Counted from the stretch's first letter, positions 3,023 through 58,600 are shown. The stretch: DNA of 64,000 bases from an uncultured Erysipelotrichaceae bacterium (GCA_902772915.1 CACYCE010000022.1:98353-162352), one strand, 5' to 3'. Numbers and translations are program-made. The notes: generated by a model not told the origin, from the sequence alone.

Positions 3023-3181
3023 ATTTTCTAAAAGTAAAGTAGGATAGCTTGAAAACATTGCAAAAATTGATTGTAATTCTCTTATTGCTTAGTTAAAGGG
3101 ACTTTAATATTATTTGAATATTAAAAAATACTTTTATTTAATATATAATTAATATACGTTTGGAAACACGCGATTATAAAT

Positions 3182-3832: not shown

Positions 3833-4664
3833 TCTATACGCCATTGATTTCTCAAACTCAATTAGATGGGATGAATCCACTTATTCTGGTGAAGTAATCA
3901 TGTCCTTGTTGGTAATGGGATTGATTGCCATCCTCTCTTTTGTCGTCTTCTTTATTTTTAGAGGTAAAGATCCTACTAAACCCGATAGAAACAAATTCAT
4001 CACTATTATGTGTGGATTTGTCAATTGGGTTGACGGCTACACCTTAGACTTAATGGGTAAGAAATGGAGAAGATTTGCAGCTTATTCATTCTGCTTAGTA
4101 GTCTATATCTTCTTATCATTTTTTATAGCCATAACTGGTTTACCTGGACCTTTAACTAGTTACACTTGTACTTTATCAATCGGTTTAATTACTTTGATAA
4201 TGATTCACGTAACTGCAATCAAGAAAAATAAACTTAAATATTTTAAACGTTACACCGATCCTTTCCCTATATTTTTACCTATTAATTTAATTGCAATGTG
4301 GGCTCCAATGCTCTCTTTATCTTTGCGTTTATTTGGTAATGCTTTGGCGGGTTTCGCTTTAGAAACTCTGGCTTATTATTTCTTAGAAAAGTTATCTGGA
4401 GTTATTTTTGGTGGCTTGCTTGCTGTTACTCCTTTCCCTGGTCCAGCAGGTATATTCTTAGCCCCTTTGATTACCCCTGCTCTCCACCTTTACTTTGATT
4501 TGTTCTCAGGTGTAGTTCAAGCCTTCATCTTCATATCCTTAACTATGGTTTGGGTCGCTCAAGAGAATCCTGACGAGGAAGCTGAAGAACAAACTAGCGT
4601 CTTAGGGGAATCTAGCAAGAATGAACCTGTGACTAATATTGAGAATGTAACTCAAAAAGCTTAA
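3825..4664 (+). CDS. atpB: F0F1 ATP synthase subunit a
   Basis: Multi-TM protein with the conserved a-subunit motif LRLFGNALAG and P-rich loops. First of eight contiguous atp genes. Confidence 0.9.
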   Translation: MNSLYAIDFSNSIRWDESTYSGEVIMSLLVMGLIAILSFVVFFIFRGKDPTKPDRNKFITIMCGFVNWVDGYTLDLMGKKWRRFAAYSFCLVVYIFLSFFIAITGLPGPLTSYTCTLSIGLITLIMIHVTAIKKNKLKYFKRYTDPFPIFLPINLIAMWAPMLSLSLRLFGNALAGFALETLAYYFLEKLSGVIFGGLLAVTPFPGPAGIFLAPLITPALHLYFDLFSGVVQAFIFISLTMVWVAQENPDEEAEEQTSVLGESSKNEPVTNIENVTQKA

Positions 4665-4981: not shown

Positions 4982-5542
4982 ATGAATCCTATTATTTATT
5001 CTACAGATGGTGATGCGATTTCCGGTATTTTAGATATTTCTGGAAAACTCATTCCTAATCTCTGGGCATTTATAACTCAGCTTATCGCGTTTAGTATAAT
5101 GGTTGCTCTCGTTATCTTTTTCGCGTATAAACCTGTGAGAAAATATTTAGATAAAAGACAAGCCTATATTAAAGAAAACTTAGACCAAGCTGCTAAATCA
5201 AACAAAGAAGCTCAAGAAGCTAATCAAAAAGCTCAATTAGCTTTAGCCAGTTCCAAAAAAGAAGGGGCAGCTATTATCTTAGAAGCGAAAAAACAAGCTG
5301 AAGAAGATAAAGTTATTTACGAAGAAAAGCTCCAGAAGGAATTGCAGTTAAAGAGAATTAGGGCTGAACAAGATATCCAGGCTCAAAAGCGTCAGGCTAT
5401 CGAAGATGCTAAAGGCGAAATCGTCGATATTGCCTTGATGGCTTCATCTTCATTATTAGGAAGAGAAGTCAATTCTAAAGACAACAAAGAATACGTCGCT
5501 AAATTTGTTGAAGAAATGCAAGAAAGTTCCCAAGCTAAATAA
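4982..5542 (+). CDS. atpF: F0F1 ATP synthase subunit b
   Basis: Single N-terminal TM followed by a long charged A/K/E/Q-rich coiled coil. Strong GGAGG RBS. Operon position. Confidence 0.85.
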   Translation: MNPIIYSTDGDAISGILDISGKLIPNLWAFITQLIAFSIMVALVIFFAYKPVRKYLDKRQAYIKENLDQAAKSNKEAQEANQKAQLALASSKKEGAAIILEAKKQAEEDKVIYEEKLQKELQLKRIRAEQDIQAQKRQAIEDAKGEIVDIALMASSSLLGREVNSKDNKEYVAKFVEEMQESSQAK

Positions 5543-10316: not shown

Positions 10317-12388
10317 AAAATGTACCTATCCCAAATGGTAGGATTCATTTCATCGTCGTAATGCCAATACCATTTAGATGAACCTCTCAAGGCGTTAATT
10401 TGCACTGAGTTAGGTTCGTTTTCTGAATAGAAATATTTGATAATTGACATATTATCTTTACCACCGACATTAATTAATTCATCATCAATTTGAGTGCTTA
10501 AAGGTAAAGTTCTAGAACTACTTAATTGTTTATTAATATCGGTAGATAAAGTATAAATATCACAATTATTAGCTTTATCAAACATCCACCTGCCAGTAAA
10601 ATAATCAAAATTTTCACCTATAATTATAGATTTTAAAGAAGAACAATTTTGGAACATAAAAGGTGCACCGAATCTAGTTAAGTGTGAAGGTAGTATAACG
10701 CATTCTAAATTACTGCAATTTTTAAAAGCGTTGTTAGAATAATTAGCTATATATTTATCATTTAAGTTGTAAGCTTTACTTAAATCCACCTTTTTAATAA
10801 AAGTTTCATTTTCAAAGGCTCCAGTGTAGATATTATCCAAGCCTTTAGAGTAATTGAAATGAGTAATTGGACATGTATTTACTGAAGTATATTGATATTC
10901 AGAATCGATAACTAAATTTTTAATTTTGCCATAATAATTTATCTTGTCAGTTTTGCCTTTAATAGTTCCTATACCATTAATAATACCAACAGTATTCGTA
11001 CTATTATCTAAAACTTTAGGTAGGATACCTACACAATTAGGATCCACTTCATAAGTGTTAATAAATTCCGGCCTTAAAGTAAATTCACCATATTTATTTT
11101 TGAAATATTCTAAAGGTAAGGAAAAATCAAAATAAGAAGTATTATCACCTAAGAAATAATTACCGGTAAATTCCCATATATAGCCATCTAAATAGATAGG
11201 AGTAATTTCAGGTTTATTTAAATATCCTTTGTAACTAGCTATTTGAGAAGGATATTCTTTGATAGTTAAAGAATTATCCAGATATCTCATGTTTGCCCAG
11301 TTTGAATCTTTTTTATCTACAAAATTGAAAGAATACTCATTTTTAATTTGTGTGAATATAGGATAATATTCACAATCTTGCGTAATATATTCATTAGCCT
11401 TATCGAAGGTTTTAAATATATAAGAATATTCATCATTAGATGCTTTTTCAGTAAGTTTACCTGCTTGGGATATTTCTGTGTTGTCAAGATTATCGTTATA
11501 AGGTTTGTAATAAGTTTTAATAACTTCATTATTCACAGTACCTTTTTCATGTTTGTACATTTTAACTTCGTAGTATGCTGCATCCATTGCATATTCAGCT
11601 ATAAAAGTAATGTTTTTATTAATAAGAGGAGTGGTACTAGGATCAACATTCCACCCTTTAAAGGTATAAGTAAATTTATCGCTCTTTCTAGAAGGTATAG
11701 TCCCTGAATAGGTAGCAAACTTATCTTTACCAGCTTCTAATTTAGTAAATGATTGTAGAAGAGAATTATCATAATTTAAGAATTTAACATCACAGTGAGT
11801 TAAAACATTTTTAAAATGAGCTTCTAAATCAATATCGTATGTAATCGACGTTAAATCCACAAAAAATGGTTCGATAGATTTGTCACCTTTATAAATCCAA
11901 CCATCAAAAATATAATCATAATAATCATCATTAGGTTTATTAGGCTCTACACCTGTATAGGTTATTGAACCATTATATGTAGTTTTACTGCTTTGGACTA
12001 AAAAATCGTCAATGTAAAAATTGACTGAATATAATTTATCTTCTTCTGTAAATTCAGGATAAAAATCTATTCTTGACCCACTTACATTAGTTAGAGGTTT
12101 ATCCCATCCGCTAAATGCATAAATATGCTCTAAAGTGGATTGTTTAGTAGGGGTCTTACCTTGGTAAGTAACATTAGTTCCACTAGTGACGATTGTGTTA
12201 TATAAAACAGTCTTTTTATCTACATCATAAAAGTAACAAGAAGTATACTTCAAAACAGACTCACTAATAGAGGAATTACTAGAAGGGAAAACTGAACTTG
12301 TTTTAGTATTGCAGGAAGTGAGAATTAATGAAAATGATAATAATGGTAATATCTTTCCAAATTTCAGCATTGTAATATTATTATACAT
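10313..12388 (-). CDS. surface lipoprotein with Listeria-Bacteroides-type repeats and a C-terminal BspA-like leucine-rich repeat domain
   Basis: Lipobox LTSC. Recurrent Y-x-F-x-GW motifs (YAFSGWDKP, YIFDGWIYKG, YTFKGWNVDP). C-terminal block (AFKNCSNLECVILPSHLTRFGAPFMFQNCSSLKSIIIGENF) looks like BspA/LRR_5 repeats. Sits convergent to atpC, with the stops overlapping by 4 nt. Confidence 0.6.
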   Translation of the reverse strand: MYNNITMLKFGKILPLLSFSLILTSCNTKTSSVFPSSNSSISESVLKYTSCYFYDVDKKTVLYNTIVTSGTNVTYQGKTPTKQSTLEHIYAFSGWDKPLTNVSGSRIDFYPEFTEEDKLYSVNFYIDDFLVQSSKTTYNGSITYTGVEPNKPNDDYYDYIFDGWIYKGDKSIEPFFVDLTSITYDIDLEAHFKNVLTHCDVKFLNYDNSLLQSFTKLEAGKDKFATYSGTIPSRKSDKFTYTFKGWNVDPSTTPLINKNITFIAEYAMDAAYYEVKMYKHEKGTVNNEVIKTYYKPYNDNLDNTEISQAGKLTEKASNDEYSYIFKTFDKANEYITQDCEYYPIFTQIKNEYSFNFVDKKDSNWANMRYLDNSLTIKEYPSQIASYKGYLNKPEITPIYLDGYIWEFTGNYFLGDNTSYFDFSLPLEYFKNKYGEFTLRPEFINTYEVDPNCVGILPKVLDNSTNTVGIINGIGTIKGKTDKINYYGKIKNLVIDSEYQYTSVNTCPITHFNYSKGLDNIYTGAFENETFIKKVDLSKAYNLNDKYIANYSNNAFKNCSNLECVILPSHLTRFGAPFMFQNCSSLKSIIIGENFDYFTGRWMFDKANNCDIYTLSTDINKQLSSSRTLPLSTQIDDELINVGGKDNMSIIKYFYSENEPNSVQINALRGSSKWYWHYDDEMNPTIWDRYIF

Positions 12389-52982: not shown

Positions 52983-53232
52983 GTTAATAACTCCTTTTAT
53001 AGTCTTATGTTATATAAAAAATTTTTGATATACAAAAAATATGCTTAGAAATTTTAACATATTTATGTTTTGATAAAGTTTAAGGTTTATAAGGTTAAGA
53101 AAATAATTAAGTTGAGAAAATATATACAAATAAAAATTATAAATATCTATTAAAGCATCCACTTTTTGAAAGATTTTTGTTTAATTATCTTTATTAATGT
53201 TAAGATATTTTTGTAGTGATGGAGAATGTATT

Positions 53233-54381
53233 ATGTCTTTAAATTCAAAAAAATTATTCAGAGAAAAATTTGGCTATGAACCTAGTGAAATGTACTTTTC
53301 ACCCGGAAGAGTAAATCTCATTGGTGAATATACCGATATAGCTGGAGGACACGTCTTACCTATGGCTATTCAATTAGGAATTGAAGCTAGTGTCTCACTT
53401 AGAAAAGATAGAACTGTTAGAGTTTTTTCTTTTAAAGATACAGTCTCTTTCAGTTTAGATAATTTAGAAAAAAATACTAAACATTCTTGGATTAATTATA
53501 TAATTGGTGAATTTTATGAATTAGAGAAAAGGGGAGTTAAAGTTGAGAAAGGTTTTGATATCGCTTTAGATTCTTCTTTACCTGTAGGTTCTGGTTTATC
53601 TTCTTCAGCGTGTTTAGAAGTTTTAATTGGTACTATCATTAATCAACATAGTTTAAAAAAGGTAGAAAAATTAGAAATTGTTAAAGCTAGTAAAGAAAAC
53701 GAGAATGAATTCATGGGTTTATCTTCAGGTATCATGGATCAATTTGCTTGTGAAATGGGCGAAGAAGGTAAATGTATTTTCTTGGATACTAAGACTATCG
53801 AATATAAATTGTCTCCTTTTATCATCCAAGGGCACGATTTAGTTATCATGAACTCTAATAGACCTAGAAAGTTAACCGATTCTAAATACAACGATAGAGT
53901 TAGAGAAATGAAAGAAGGCTTAGAAGATTTAAAACTTTATTTGAATTTTAATTGCGCATGCGATATCTCTTTAGAAGATTTAGAAAAATATAAAGATAAA
54001 ATTAACAATCCATTAAGTTACAAGAGATTGAAACATCTAATTTCCGATAATTTGAGAGTTATTAAAGCTTCTGAATTATTATCTCAAGGTAGAGTTGATG
54101 AATTCTGCAAAGTTTTAAATGAAGGTCATCAATCTGTTTCTAAAGATTTCGAGGTCGCGGGTTTTGAATTAGATACTTTATGTGAAGAAGCTCTTAAAGG
54201 TGGTGCTAAAGGCGCGAGAATGACCGGCGCGGGATTTGGAGGATGCTGCATCTTCGTATCAGAAAAATCTAAGACTAAAGAAATAATGCTTCACGTAGTA
54301 GACGCTTATAGGCAAAAGACCGGTTACAATTGTCAATGCTACATAGCTTCTCCTAATGATGGGGCAAAGAAGATTTCTTAA
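53233..54381 (+). CDS. galK: galactokinase
   Basis: Galactokinase signature PGRVNLIGEYTD and GHMP motif PVGSGLSSSA. ATG 53233 (GGAGA RBS 7 nt upstream) is preferred over the track's 53197. Confidence 0.88.
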   Translation: MSLNSKKLFREKFGYEPSEMYFSPGRVNLIGEYTDIAGGHVLPMAIQLGIEASVSLRKDRTVRVFSFKDTVSFSLDNLEKNTKHSWINYIIGEFYELEKRGVKVEKGFDIALDSSLPVGSGLSSSACLEVLIGTIINQHSLKKVEKLEIVKASKENENEFMGLSSGIMDQFACEMGEEGKCIFLDTKTIEYKLSPFIIQGHDLVIMNSNRPRKLTDSKYNDRVREMKEGLEDLKLYLNFNCACDISLEDLEKYKDKINNPLSYKRLKHLISDNLRVIKASELLSQGRVDEFCKVLNEGHQSVSKDFEVAGFELDTLCEEALKGGAKGARMTGAGFGGCCIFVSEKSKTKEIMLHVVDAYRQKTGYNCQCYIASPNDGAKKIS

Positions 54382-54507
54382 TAATTAATTGAGCTCAGGA
54401 TTGTGAAGTGAGTTTTAATGTGTTTGATGCCTAATCCGATCTAATTATTAAACGATAATAATCTTCTTTTCATATGATTAATACCAGGATGATTCCTTGG
54501 TCACTGC

Positions 54508-54537
54508 CATAGGCATATCCCATGGGATATGCCTATG
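54508..54537. repeat. 30-nt perfect palindrome centred on CCATGG
   Basis: cATAGGCATATCCCATGGGATATGCCTATg is exactly self-complementary. Lies inside the IR-flanked segment. Confidence 0.9.
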
Positions 54538-54652
54538 AGGCTGTCGAGGATAATGTCTCTAAGCGAGTGAATGGTTAAAGAAATCTATCGCATGAATAAA
54601 ACCCCTTATAGAGCACAAAATTCTTAAATTTTATAAAAATTGTGCTGTATAA

Positions 54653-54952
54653 TTGACTTTATATAAAAGAGAGCGTTATTTATCAAAAATAAGAGGCTTT
54701 TACTATGAATGCGACATTATCAAGGTGATTTCAGGAGTTAGGCGATGTGGCAAATCGTCTTTGATGGAAATCATCGCCGACGAGATTTCCTCTAGCGGCG
54801 TTCCAAGCGAAAACATCATTTATTTGAATCTGGATAAAAAGGGTCTCAAGGGAATAATAACTGTACCCCTCCTCCTGTTGTGTTGTCCAGGATTTTGGGT
54901 ACAGTTCACATTAGCTTATAGACAACAGTCCTTTGTTCAATTAGGATATTAG
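54653..54952 (+). pseudogene. truncated N-terminal fragment of a DUF4143-type AAA ATPase
   Basis: First ~64 aa (YLSKIRGFYYECDIIKVISGVRRCGKSSLMEII...ENIIYLNLD) match the N-terminus/Walker A region of ~400-aa AAA+DUF4143 ATPases. The rest (…PLLLLCCPGFWVQF…) is out-of-family sequence. Confidence 0.55.
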
Positions 54953-55121
54953 AAGAAAGTCCAACTTTTGGGTCTCACTTCATTGACCTGAGCTTTTAAA
55001 TTTTAATAGAGTTTCCAAATATTATTAAGTATTTATTAGATAAAAATTAATATATTGTTTATTAATTTTATATGCTTTAATATTATATTATTAGAAACCA
55101 TGAAAGGAGTTAAAGTTTCCT

Positions 55122-55682
55122 ATGGGCATGAAAGATGCGATAATTCATGAAACTATTAATTTATTTAACAAGAAAGGTTATCAATTTACCTTAGATGAAC
55201 TTTCAACTAATTTAAAAATATCAAAGAAGACTATATATAAATATTTTGAAAATAAAGAAGATATCTTCAGAACTTTCATTATTGAATCTTTTAATTCAGT
55301 TCATGAACAACAAAGGGATATTTATAATGATAACGATTTTTCTACTAAAGAGAAGTTAGTAGCGATTTTAACTACCCACTCCAAATATGAAGACTCCTTG
55401 ACCATTGAAAAGACCGCAGGTCTAGAAAATTATTATCCGGAATTATATCAATTGATTTTATCTAGTTATAAAACTGAGTGGGACAATGTCGAATCTTTAT
55501 TAAATAAAGGTATGGAAGAAGGAATCTTTAAAAGAGATTTCAATATTCAAATTGTTAAATACTTTTTGATTAACGGTATGCAAATGATGCATAAAAAAGA
55601 AGTTTTAGATGCTGCTAAAACTAGTTACAGAGAAGGAATATCTCAAATCATTGAAATATTTATAAGAGGCATCAGCGCTTAA
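55122..55682 (+). CDS. TetR-family transcriptional regulator
   Basis: N-terminal HTH (INLFNKKGYQFTLDELSTNLKISKKTIYKYFENKEDIF). 186 aa. Directly upstream of the GH2 gene. Confidence 0.8.
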   Translation: MGMKDAIIHETINLFNKKGYQFTLDELSTNLKISKKTIYKYFENKEDIFRTFIIESFNSVHEQQRDIYNDNDFSTKEKLVAILTTHSKYEDSLTIEKTAGLENYYPELYQLILSSYKTEWDNVESLLNKGMEEGIFKRDFNIQIVKYFLINGMQMMHKKEVLDAAKTSYREGISQIIEIFIRGISA

Positions 55683-55695
55683 TTAAGGAGAAATT

Positions 55696-58600
55696 ATGTT
55701 TAATTTAGATTTGCTTTCTTCGAATGTAGGTAAGGAAAATCTCGAGGATTTTTCTTCTTATCATTCTTCTTTTACATCTAAAAATAACAATCGTCTTTGT
55801 CTAGATGGAAAATGGAAATTTAAATATTTAGAAAAATTTGATGAGAAATATTTGAATATTGATTTCGATCCCTCTTCTTTAGAGGATATTAAAGTTCCTT
55901 CTAATATTGAAATCGAAACCAATTATTCTAAGCCTCAATATTTAAATACTATCTATCCTTTTGAAATAGAAGGGAAAATCAATTATTGGGAAGTTCCTTC
56001 TAATAATCCTTGTGCCTTTTATTATAAAGATATAGAAATAGAAGACATCGATAAAGATATATATTTAGAAATCAACGGATTTGAATCTGCAATCTATCTA
56101 TTTGTCAATTCTAATTACGTAGGTTTTTCTACTCACGGATTTGTCACTAACAAATTTAAAATCGACGAATATTTAAAAAAGGGAAAGAATAGAATTACTA
56201 TTCTTCTATTTAAATATTCTTTAGCATCTTGGATAACTGATCAAGATATGTGGAGATTAACAGGTTTATTTAGATCTATTAATCTTTTGACGTTGAAAAG
56301 AACTCACTTTGAAGATATTGAAATTAAGACTAATCTCGCTTCTAATTTAGATAAAGGCGAATTAGAGTTGAATGTAAAAATTAAAAATCCCGTGAAAAAC
56401 ACGAGAATGTCTATTATTTTAACTTATAAAAACGAAGTTATTTTCTCAGAGGAAAAAGAGGCTAATAAAGAAGTCTTCCACTTTAAAAAAACTGTCGAGA
56501 ATTTGAAATTATGGTCATCAGAGATGCCTAATCTTTACGATTTAACTTTAACTTTAAGTAGAGATAATGAAGAATTAGAAACTTCTAAATTAAATGTCGG
56601 ATTTAGAAAAATTGAAATTAAAAATGGAGTGATACTTCTCAATAATAAGAGAATTATTTTTAAAGGTGTAAATAGACATGAATTCGATTATAAGAACGGT
56701 AGAGTAGTCTCTTCTAGTCTTACTGAATATGACATCCAATTATTAAAGAGAAACAATTTTAACTCTATAAGAACTTCCCATTACCCTGATATCAATGAAT
56801 TCTATGAACTATGTGATAAATATGGAATTTTAGTAATGGACGAAACTGCTATAGAGACTCACGGTACTTGGTCAGATATTTCTCGTCATAATTATAAAGA
56901 TCCTACAGACCACGTTCTTCCTGGCAATGATTCTAAATATTTAGAATTTATTCTAGATAGAGGAAGAAGCATGCTAGAAAGAGATAAGAACCATCCTTGT
57001 ATTGTTTCTTGGTCTGATGGTAATGAATCTTACATGGGTAAGAATCTATTAGCGCTATCTAATTATTTTAGAAAGAGAGATAAATCTCGTTTTGTTCATT
57101 ATGAAGGATGTTCTTGGTTAGCTCCTAAATGGGATGAGATGAGTGATGTAGTCTCGAGAATGTACGCTAAACCTAAAGAAATCGACGCTTATTTAGCTAA
57201 AGATAAATCTAAACCGTACATCCTATGTGAATTTGAACACTCAATGGGTAACTCCACGGGTAATTTTGATGAATATATGGCTCTAACTAAGAAATACGAG
57301 CAATACCAAGGTGGTTTTATTTGGGATTATGTCGACCAAGGTATTTATAAAGACGGTTTGATTCATTATGGAGGAGATTTTAAAGAATATCCTCACGATG
57401 GCAACTTCTGCGCTGATGGTATAGTTAATGCTGATAGAAGTGAAACTAGTAAGATTCACGCGGTTAAATATTATTATCAAGATCTAGTCTTCGATATTTC
57501 TAAAGATGGAGTGAAGATTAAAAATGAAAATAATTTCCGCGATACTTCATATTTAACTTTTGAATATAAATTATTTGAAAATGAAGAATTAGTTTTAAGT
57601 GAACCTTTTGAATTGAATATCGAACCTTCTAAAGAAGAGATTTATAAACTTAAATCTAAATATACCTTTAAGAATGATAAACATTATTATGTTCAAGTTA
57701 GCGCTTATTTAAAAGAAGATACTTTATACGCTACAAAAGGTTACGAATTGATGTACGAAGAAAAATTTATTAAATCCAGTTACATCGAATCAGATAACAT
57801 TTTAGAAAAGGTGGGTAATTCGAAATTGAGAGTTAATACTACACCTCACTTTATCTATGTAGAAGGAGGAGATTTAAAAGTAGTCTTCACTGGTATAGGT
57901 AGAGGTATAGGAGGACTAGAAGCTATCTTCTACAAAGGTAAGAGATATTTATATAATGCTGTCTATCCTACTTTATATAGACCTACTACCGATAACGATG
58001 CAACTTACGGTAAATATTTACAATCTTTCTATTTAGCTTGTTCTTATTATCCCATTTACAATCCTATGAAAAATCCTATTAAGATTGTTTCCCAATCTGA
58101 AGATGAGGTTGTAATAGAAGTTAATTATTCTATGATTAATGGAATTTTATTTAAGAATTTCAAAGTTTTATATACTATATATTCTTCTGAGACTATTAAA
58201 GTAGAATACATCTATAAAAGACCTAGATTATTACCTAAACCTCCTCTAGTAGGCTTGAAATTTAAACTAGATAAATCTATGAATGAATTCACTTATATCG
58301 GCCTAGGTAGAGAAGAGAATTATCTAGATCGTTACAAAGGTCAAAAATACGGCAAATATACCTCTTCAGTTAAAGAAGAATTTGTTAAATATTCTAAACC
58401 TCAAGAATGTGGCAACCATCTTTTCACTAGAATGGTCTCTATTAAAAATGGCGAGGGTAGTTTAGATTTCTATTCGTTGAATAAGAATTTCTCATTTAAG
58501 TATCTAGAGTGGAACGAATTTGAAATTGAAAATGCTTATAGATATGAAAATTTACCTAAATCTAATTTCAATTATTTAACTATCTGCGCCTTTAATAAAG

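Follow-up and report, generated by a model that had tools for sequence, protein, structure and literature searches.

What is the 740-bp spacer that separates galK from tetR in this uncultured rumen species, and how did it come to hold part of an ATPase gene? The window, that is, the whole stretch of 64,000 nucleotides analysed here, is part of a 415-kb ENA metagenome contig, and four contigs back its arrangement. The spacer extends from the galK stop codon (54381) to the tetR start (55122), positions 54382-55121, and is the widest interval that separates ORFs of 120 aa or more anywhere in the window, in agreement with the preliminary description, which had called it the largest non-coding gap. 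The same description held the segment to be GC-richer than its surroundings and bounded by inverted repeats. The element delimited below has a GC content of 36.4%, well above that of normal intergenic DNA (17.6% in the remaining spacer), but the window overall stands at 33.2%. Inverted repeats are present at 54392-54412 and 54974-54994, matching at 17 of 21 positions rather than at the 18 reported, and the corresponding degenerate pattern occurs at two places only in the window, where shuffled sequences lead one to expect 0. A search of positions 53000-56000 against Rfam at E values up to 1 returned a chance match to a miRNA model outside the element as its sole hit, and blastn of the spacer against plasmids and phages gave no match.

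To compare this locus among strains, we gathered 30 same-species contigs via members of the TetR and GalK clusters and homologues of the ATPase. The flanks of these contigs are 98.3-99.5% identical to the window, and the species is present in many bovine and rumen assemblies. The galK-tetR site is empty in 15 contigs and filled in the other 15, and the insertion is still polymorphic within the species. The galK-tetR spacer, part of the galK-lacZ interval that the preliminary description had singled out for comparison, shows three states. Empty alleles have a spacer of 157/158 bp with a terminator hairpin as its sole content. Full alleles (L096, L097, L108, L109 and L131) contain a 1666-bp insert with an intact 410-aa gene of AAA_14 + DUF4143 architecture, the spacer measuring 1827 bp in L096 and L097. 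Degraded alleles were found in the window (740 bp), in L082 (805 bp) and in L130, an intermediate allele in which the start codon is intact and the ATPase breakpoint is identical to that of the window.

The empty alleles reveal precisely where the insertion occurred. Their hairpin reads AGCTCAGG-ATTGA-CCTGAGCT-TTTT, within the longer arrangement GAGCTCAGG-ATTGA-CCTGAGCTT-TTTAATTTT, the spacer itself reading ...TAATTGAGCTCAGG-ATTGA-CCTGAGCTTTT(T)AATTTT. In filled alleles the junction becomes AGCTCAGG-A-TTG-[TGAAGTGAG......CTCACTTCA]-TTG-A-CCTGAGCT. The insert, which spans 54404-54982 (579 bp) in window coordinates, thus sits within the terminator loop, is flanked by a 3-bp TTG duplication and has perfect 9-bp TG...CA termini, TGAAGTGAG...CTCACTTCA. 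The spacer consists of the following features, in which IS-A and IS-B designate two IS3-like elements described below.

54392-54399, plus strand: left half of the galK intrinsic-terminator stem (AGCTCAGG), host sequence outside the insert.
54400-54403, no strand: loop base A (54400) and left TTG target-site duplication (54401-54403); the loop is ATTGA when empty and A-TTG-[insert]-TTG-A when filled.
54404-54412, plus strand: left terminus of the unit, TGAAGTGAG, which equals the 9-nt outer tip of the right inverted repeat of IS-A.
54413-54507, no strand: left arm, which every filled allele conserves.
54508-54537, no strand: 30-nt palindrome CATAGGCATATCCCA/TGGGATATGCCTATG at a rearrangement junction, perfect in the window allele only.
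54538-54663, plus strand: upstream region of the ATPase gene with TATAAT at 54648-54653 as a putative -10 box, 96.6-99% identical to L082 and L096.
54664-54857, plus strand: AAA_14/DUF4143 (PADLOC PDC-S01) pseudogene fragment, codons 5-69 of 410, delimited by alignment to the intact allele, Pfam and tblastn.
54858-54908, no strand: 51-bp putative remnant of a second IS3-like element, IS-B, forming a hairpin in sequence; one of its strands is IRL-like, and the remnant is inverted in L082.
54909-54982, plus strand: last 74 bp of IS-A (98.6% identity), comprising the C-terminus of orfB (..LAYRQQSFVQLGY, stop codon 54950-54952) and the right repeat ending CTCACTTCA.
54983-54998, plus strand: right TTG (54983-54985), loop base A, right stem half CCTGAGCT (54987-54994) and T run, as defined by the allele junctions.

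The 21-nt inverted repeat is therefore a composite of 8 bp of galK terminator stem, the loop base with the target duplication and the 9-bp termini of the insert. Since 8 of its 21 positions are host terminator stem, it does not mark the ends of an element as had been proposed. Conversely, the suggestion that the segment is the scar of a mobile element was borne out, as strains of the same species either lack the insert or have it at one identical point, flanked by a 3-bp duplication and ending in 9-bp termini that match perfectly.

A scan of the empty site returned a terminator-like structure of 9 pairs with a 5-nt loop and the T tail TTTAATTTT; a GC-containing stem-loop followed by a T run after the stop codon is what is expected of a rho-independent terminator, and galK is predicted to have one in the empty alleles. 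No terminator was called in the window version, in which the stem halves lie 587 nt apart. The RNA fold of the whole insert (window 54385-55002) is unusually stable (z = -5.8). In both the MFE and the centroid folds, the closing helix is the split terminator stem, lengthened by the 9-bp element termini and followed by the U run. Termination might be partly restored by this extended stem in the window version.

The right end of the unit is derived from IS-A. Window positions 54909-54982 correspond to positions 1401-1474 of the copy in L122 and retain the last 13 codons and the stop codon of orfB. The tail of a 99-aa ORF that spans the ATPase fragment (..LAYRQQSFVQLGY*) is therefore the C-terminus of a transposase that came to be in frame by chance. 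When metagenomes were scanned with the right terminus, 15 loci were identified, six of which (L115, L116, L118, L120, L122 and L125) carry IS-A copies that are mutually 82-100% identical and have different flanks. Five copies are complete (L116, L118, L120, L122 and L125; for example, L122 857-2330), the copy of L115 is limited to the right 1000 bp, and L121 and L123 contain end fragments. A full copy of this element of rumen metagenomes measures 1474 bp and contains orfA (164 aa) and orfB. OrfB scored 284.9 bits against the IS3 family transposase model NF033516 of NCBIfam (cutoff 160) and contains the Pfam domains rve, rve_2 and HTH_21, while OrfA contains HTH_28 and HTH_Tnp_1; the parent copies are thus predicted to encode the two-ORF DDE/rve transposase typical of the IS3 family. 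Among annotated IS3 transposases of plasmids, the closest are about 50% identical to OrfB.

The ends of IS-A are also of IS3 type. Its repeats, IRL TGAGATGAGACCCAAATGTTAGAC and IRR TGAAGTGAGACCCAAAAGTTGGAC, are imperfect and about 24 bp long; the left repeat sequence is TGAGATGAGACCC, and all five left repeats read TGAGATGAG. The unit in the window opens with TG and closes with CA, the tips found in the IS3 family, and duplications in the 3-4 bp range of this family occur at galK (TTG), L122 (TAC) and L120 (AAA). The remaining complete copies have a 6-bp duplication (CATTTG, L116), a duplication with one mismatch (L118) or none visible (L125). Each of the five complete copies occupies the loop of a hairpin with an A tract and a T tract at its sides, IRR facing the T run as it does at galK. 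Together with the galK site, these five copies suggest that IS-A targets the loops of terminator-like hairpins. No IS-A copy was found in the 64-kb window or in the flanks examined for the species. Two IS3-family elements, IS1397 and ISKpn1, target the hairpins of REP/palindromic units (PMC1525189). IS-A resembles them in its DDE (rve) transposase in two frames, TG...CA tips, imperfect inverted repeats, mostly 3-bp duplications and insertion into hairpin loops. Unlike them, it is found in unrelated terminator-like hairpins (A tract, stem, loop, T tract) and not in a single REP family.

The cargo of the insertion is best seen in the full alleles. The intact 410-aa product of L096 matches the PADLOC model PDC-S01 end to end (E 1.5e-130), as well as AAA_14 and DUF4143. 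Of the single defence-type loci in rumen genomes, PDC-S01 is the one found most often (PMC13356809); it has been described as an ATPase fused to a PD-(D/E)XK domain, a single-gene phage-defence candidate that is unvalidated (PMC12988326); DUF4143 is listed within the PD-(D/E)XK superfamily (PMC3424549). The intact allele therefore has the full-length architecture of PDC-S01, whereas the window holds codons 5-69 alone, without a start codon. This agrees with the truncated DUF4143-type ATPase gene of about 64 codons noted in the preliminary description: the 99-aa ORF (54653-54952) matches Pfam AAA_14 on residues 23-66 (E 1.6e-7), covering profile positions 4-43 of 129. With 30 full-length relatives as queries, tblastn covered residues 1-70/74 and detected no further part of the gene in the window, which ruled out 54858-54995 as a remnant of the ATPase C-terminus. 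We read TATAAT at 54648-54653 as the probable -10 box of the gene; a consensus promoter scan called no promoter there.

Relative to the intact alleles, the ATPase gene of the window has suffered two losses. A 45-bp deletion at 54663|54664 removed the ATG and the first codons; L096, L109, L130 and L131 still have these 45 bp, which the window and L082 lack. Codons 70-410 are also missing from the window. In L130 the ATPase sequence ends at GGGAATAA|TGAACTGTACCC, a junction that it shares with the window, with the complete IS-B terminus TGAACTG abutting, and in L082 it breaks at codon 9/10, abutting the same terminus. IS-mediated adjacent deletions are expected to leave such a picture, in which two different deletions stop at a single IS terminus, and they probably truncated the gene. 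The 3' UTR of the ATPase gene reads …CCTTATGATGTAATCCAATTAAC. A global MAFFT alignment of the window with L096 put the large gap in the wrong place, and only its left part was used.

All ATPases at least 98% identical to this one map to the galK site. Protein searches with the 70-aa fragment found no relatives other than short or truncated ones, at most 76% identical, and shed no light on this locus. A scan of GTDB representatives with the fragment, among which this species is absent, returned 80 ATPase loci of at most 72% identity, none of which belongs to this species or shares its flanks. An ATPase gene of the PDC-S01 type that is 80% identical lies elsewhere than the galK site, at positions 108-1690 of L111; it is directly followed by a gene of the relB antitoxin family, and about 100 nt upstream of it are homologous to the promoter region of the cassette. 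No IS ends were found at this L111 gene.

The 51 bp between the ATPase fragment and the IS-A end (54858-54908) are all that is known of IS-B. In the window they form the hairpin AACTGTACCC[28]GGGTACAGTT, in which repeats of 10 bp (AACTGTACCC/GGGTACAGTT) surround 28 bp; in L130 and L082 the repeats extend to 12 bp (TGAACTGTACCC/GGGTACAGTTCA), and L130 keeps the full terminus TGAACTG. The remnant lies in the opposite orientation in L082, at 100% identity. Its IRL-like strand, TGAACTGTACCCAAAATCCTGGACAACACAACAGGAGG, resembles the IRL of IS-A, including the AGGAGG that precedes orfA (shuffle p about 1e-4). We read this segment as the probable collapsed remnant of a relative of IS-A that inserted 74 bp from the IS-A right end. 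Of IS-B and IS-A the full alleles retain no more than 26 bp and 17 bp, respectively, so that full and degraded alleles would both derive from a larger ancestor, which we infer to have had a whole IS-A downstream of the ATPase gene. Among the recovered alleles, none has a complete IS-A beside this gene, the remnants being of 74 bp and 17 bp only.

The lesions are not distributed in a simple manner among alleles. The 45-bp deletion is common to the window and L082, and a deletion in the left arm is common to the window and L096. The allele features fit no single tree, which implies that alleles recombined, that deletions recurred or that some of the metagenome assemblies are chimeric.

We consider it highly probable that the window copy is a decayed IS3-mediated insertion that brought an ATPase gene of the PDC-S01 type into the galK terminator loop, with the following history. 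IS-A (1474 bp), with its preference for terminator-like hairpin loops, would have placed a transposition unit into the 5-nt galK loop, duplicating TTG. The right end of this unit is the right inverted repeat of IS-A and its left end the 9-nt IS-A tip TGAAGTGAG; between them lay an AAA_14/DUF4143 ATPase gene, presumably with its own promoter, which is the phage-defence candidate PDC-S01. Decay of the insertion then took different courses in different strains. The body of IS-A would have been lost, the related IS-B having landed in the 3' end of its orfB, and deletions ending exactly at the IS-B terminus removed codons 70-410 in the lineage of the window and everything from codon 10 onward in L082. 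The 45-bp deletion took the start codon, and an internal deletion of the left arm would have created a quasi-palindromic junction that was perfected to 30 nt in the window lineage. The order of these deletions is presumptive, as is the former presence of a whole IS-A. What is left in the window is an inert pseudogene with an IS wreck, by which the galK terminator is split.

How the ATPase gene was captured is a separate matter, on which two proposals deserve consideration. The first, which is plausible although we hold it tentatively, is a composite transposon: two inverted IS-A copies flanking the ATPase segment would have moved it by their outer right-repeat ends, after which the left copy would have been deleted to its outer 9 nt and the right copy to 74 bp. 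In support of this proposal, the left tip TGAAGTGAG matches the right-repeat tip of IS-A at 9 of 9 positions, whereas the five left repeats read TGAGATGAG, and a perfect match followed by no similarity is the pattern expected of truncation. Indeed, beyond these 9 nt the left terminus continues into TTTTAATGTG... and bears no significant similarity to the ends of IS-A (shuffle p 0.3-0.7). Post-insertion loss of flanking IS copies is documented for Tn6330 (ISApl1-mcr-1-ISApl1), which loses its ISApl1 copies after insertion (PMC5821093). As in Tn6330, IS ends would have delivered a cargo gene, the target duplication is kept, and IS copies would have been lost, leaving short remnants; here, however, the IS belongs to the IS3 rather than the IS30 family, the cargo gene decays as well, and the ancestor with two IS copies is reconstructed rather than seen. 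Against the composite structure, all filled alleles have one left arm in common, and none has more than 9 nt of IS-A on that side. What the recovered alleles hold of IS-A amounts to 9 nt at the left end and 17-74 bp at the right end, and whole copies occur in none of them.

The second proposal, one-ended transposition, strikes us as somewhat less likely. A single IS-A located downstream would have used its own right repeat together with a chance 9-nt look-alike upstream of the ATPase gene, moving gene and IS together. The presence of IS-A sequence on the right side only speaks for it, and the TG...CA tips and 3-bp duplication fit the chemistry of IS3 elements. The use of surrogate ends by IS911 and the mobilisation of adjacent genes by ISEcp1 are precedents. 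However, a 9-nt left end is short for a functional IS3 end: a tip matching at 9 of 9 positions without internal similarity lacks the part of the IS3 inverted repeat that is bound by the transposase. Furthermore, no intermediate was found among the recovered alleles.

The left arm (TGAAGTGAGTTTTAATGTGTTTGATGCC…) is 98% identical to that of L082, L096, L108, L109 and L127-L131; it has no match in the ATPase loci of other species, in plasmids or in phages, and no Pfam domain. At its inner end, the palindrome that had been reported as a 28-nt self-complementary sequence is indeed perfect but two nucleotides longer, 30 nt (54508-54537). Its 15-nt arm is the longest in the window, the maximum in 50 shuffles being 13 and the mean 8.7. 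Intact alleles contain at this position a quasi-palindrome that matches at 12 of 15 positions, CATAGGCATATCCCA|TGGGATATTCGTATG, and clustered T to G and G to C differences make it perfect (15/15) in the window. L082 has a single half-site (GGCATATCCCAT), followed by 268 extra bp. As the allele alignments suggest, the palindrome marks an internal deletion junction and is a by-product rather than a conserved site. Clustered substitutions that perfect a quasi-palindrome are the classic signature of template switching. The two clustered substitutions and the change from 12/15 to 15/15 resemble this form of correction, the direction of change being deduced here from allele comparison alone, and template switching on the hairpin is the most likely way in which the palindrome was perfected. 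The 268 bp of L082 (positions 1089-1356) occur in this allele only, have a GC content of roughly 45-50% and contain open frames on both strands (e.g. ..GISHHLEGGLRLRRRVFNKDRPDTFFEIVK*). Neither these frames nor the ORF fragments of the left arm had a match in Pfam or in tblastn against plasmids.

Could the palindrome instead function as a recombination site or operator, with the 51-bp IS-B remnant as a switch that inverts to govern tetR-lacZ read-through? We regard this as very unlikely. The palindrome does far exceed the length expected by chance, the 28-bp hairpin core is inverted between two strains, and the insert as a whole folds into RNA of unusual stability (z = -5.8). Nevertheless, the palindrome is imperfect in every gene-bearing allele and absent from L082, the arms of the hairpin are IS-type termini, and no recombinase gene lies nearby in the window. 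Moreover, 28 bp is a very short core for an enzyme to invert, and no more than two states were observed, in separate strains. A shufflon or other site-specific inversion was likewise rejected as the main explanation, on account of the IS-type arms and the lack of a nearby recombinase.

Even less probable is a MITE or other non-autonomous repeat, in which the IR-flanked segment of roughly 600 bp would itself be a dispersed mobile unit, a behaviour that the preliminary description had thought possible. Terminal inverted repeats and a target duplication are present, and assemblies break inside the right end in four samples. Six Logan contigs from several samples break at IS ends (L103, L104, L105 and L107 in their first 30 nt, L109 and L110 at their last bases), either exactly where 31-mers turn IS-A-internal or at the IS-B remnant. 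The breaks in the right end are thus explained by copies of IS-A, and the breaks of these contigs are indirect evidence that these IS ends are multi-copy in those communities. By contrast, among the contigs examined, the left arm, the promoter region and the ATPase gene were found at the galK locus only, where all ATPases of at least 98% identity lie; the multi-copy part is the 74-bp right end alone. Matches were absent from other ATPase loci, plasmids, phages and viral contigs, the last of which were scanned with both ends of the unit. The 600-bp form is also one of several deletion derivatives of the 1666-bp unit. Like mobile insertion cassettes and MITEs, the unit has IS-type termini and a duplication on either side of DNA other than a transposase gene; unlike them, it occurs at one locus, its left end is IS-derived over 9 nt only, and its right end includes transposase coding sequence, which makes it a deletion derivative and not a dedicated non-autonomous element.

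Plain decay of an ancestral resident ATPase gene, with the inverted repeat due to chance or to the terminator stem alone and no mobile element involved, is scarcely credible: some relatives do have an intact gene at the galK site, but 15 empty alleles have an intact 9-pair hairpin, the 5-nt loop of which is broken up by the insert with its 3-bp duplication and its termini of IS origin, and the insert has a GC content of 38-40% against 32-33% in the flanks. The preliminary description had reasoned that an intact ATPase gene at this position in relatives, together with a lack of further copies in the genome, would point to gene decay rather than to a mobile element. Such relatives exist, yet the empty alleles demonstrate arrival by insertion; the opposition of the two does not discriminate, as both are true.

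The decayed IS3-mediated insertion provides a worked example of IS elements that deliver and then lose their cargo, with a clean series of empty, full and degraded alleles in one uncultured rumen species. PDC-S01, the commonest defence candidate of the rumen, appears here as IS-linked cargo that was gained and then quickly pseudogenised. The case also indicates that a perfect palindrome of 30 nt can have its origin in a deletion junction and need not be a binding site. Current concepts are left unchanged by this locus, which is instructive but ordinary. An IS3-family element that apparently aims at terminator loops is a mildly novel lead, with a link to a defence candidate. We give about even chances to a broader proposal, namely that IS-A is an undescribed IS3-family element that recognises DNA structure, inserts in fixed orientation into the loops of generic rho-independent terminators and is able to carry PDC-S01 between genomes. 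If so, terminator loops would be landing pads for the gain and loss of defence genes in rumen bacteria.

Two minor observations concern other loci. Three large contigs unrelated to the rumen species, L113 (~4164-4182), L114 (~11188-11206) and L126 (~5215-5233), share a 19-mer within a longer, largely conserved stretch, TGTTAGACTTTTGGGTCTCACTTCAG[A/C]GTT, located just 5' of a gene whose product starts with MGI[KQ]R[VI]G...; this stretch may be a conserved leader or another IS-like end. In L117, positions 3060-3110 contain a lone 51-bp remnant of the IS-A right end without a transposase, adjoining two ORFs that, on inspection by eye, we take for a HipA-like toxin (425 aa) and an HTH antitoxin (99 aa). 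The L117 remnant is another decayed IS-A insertion.
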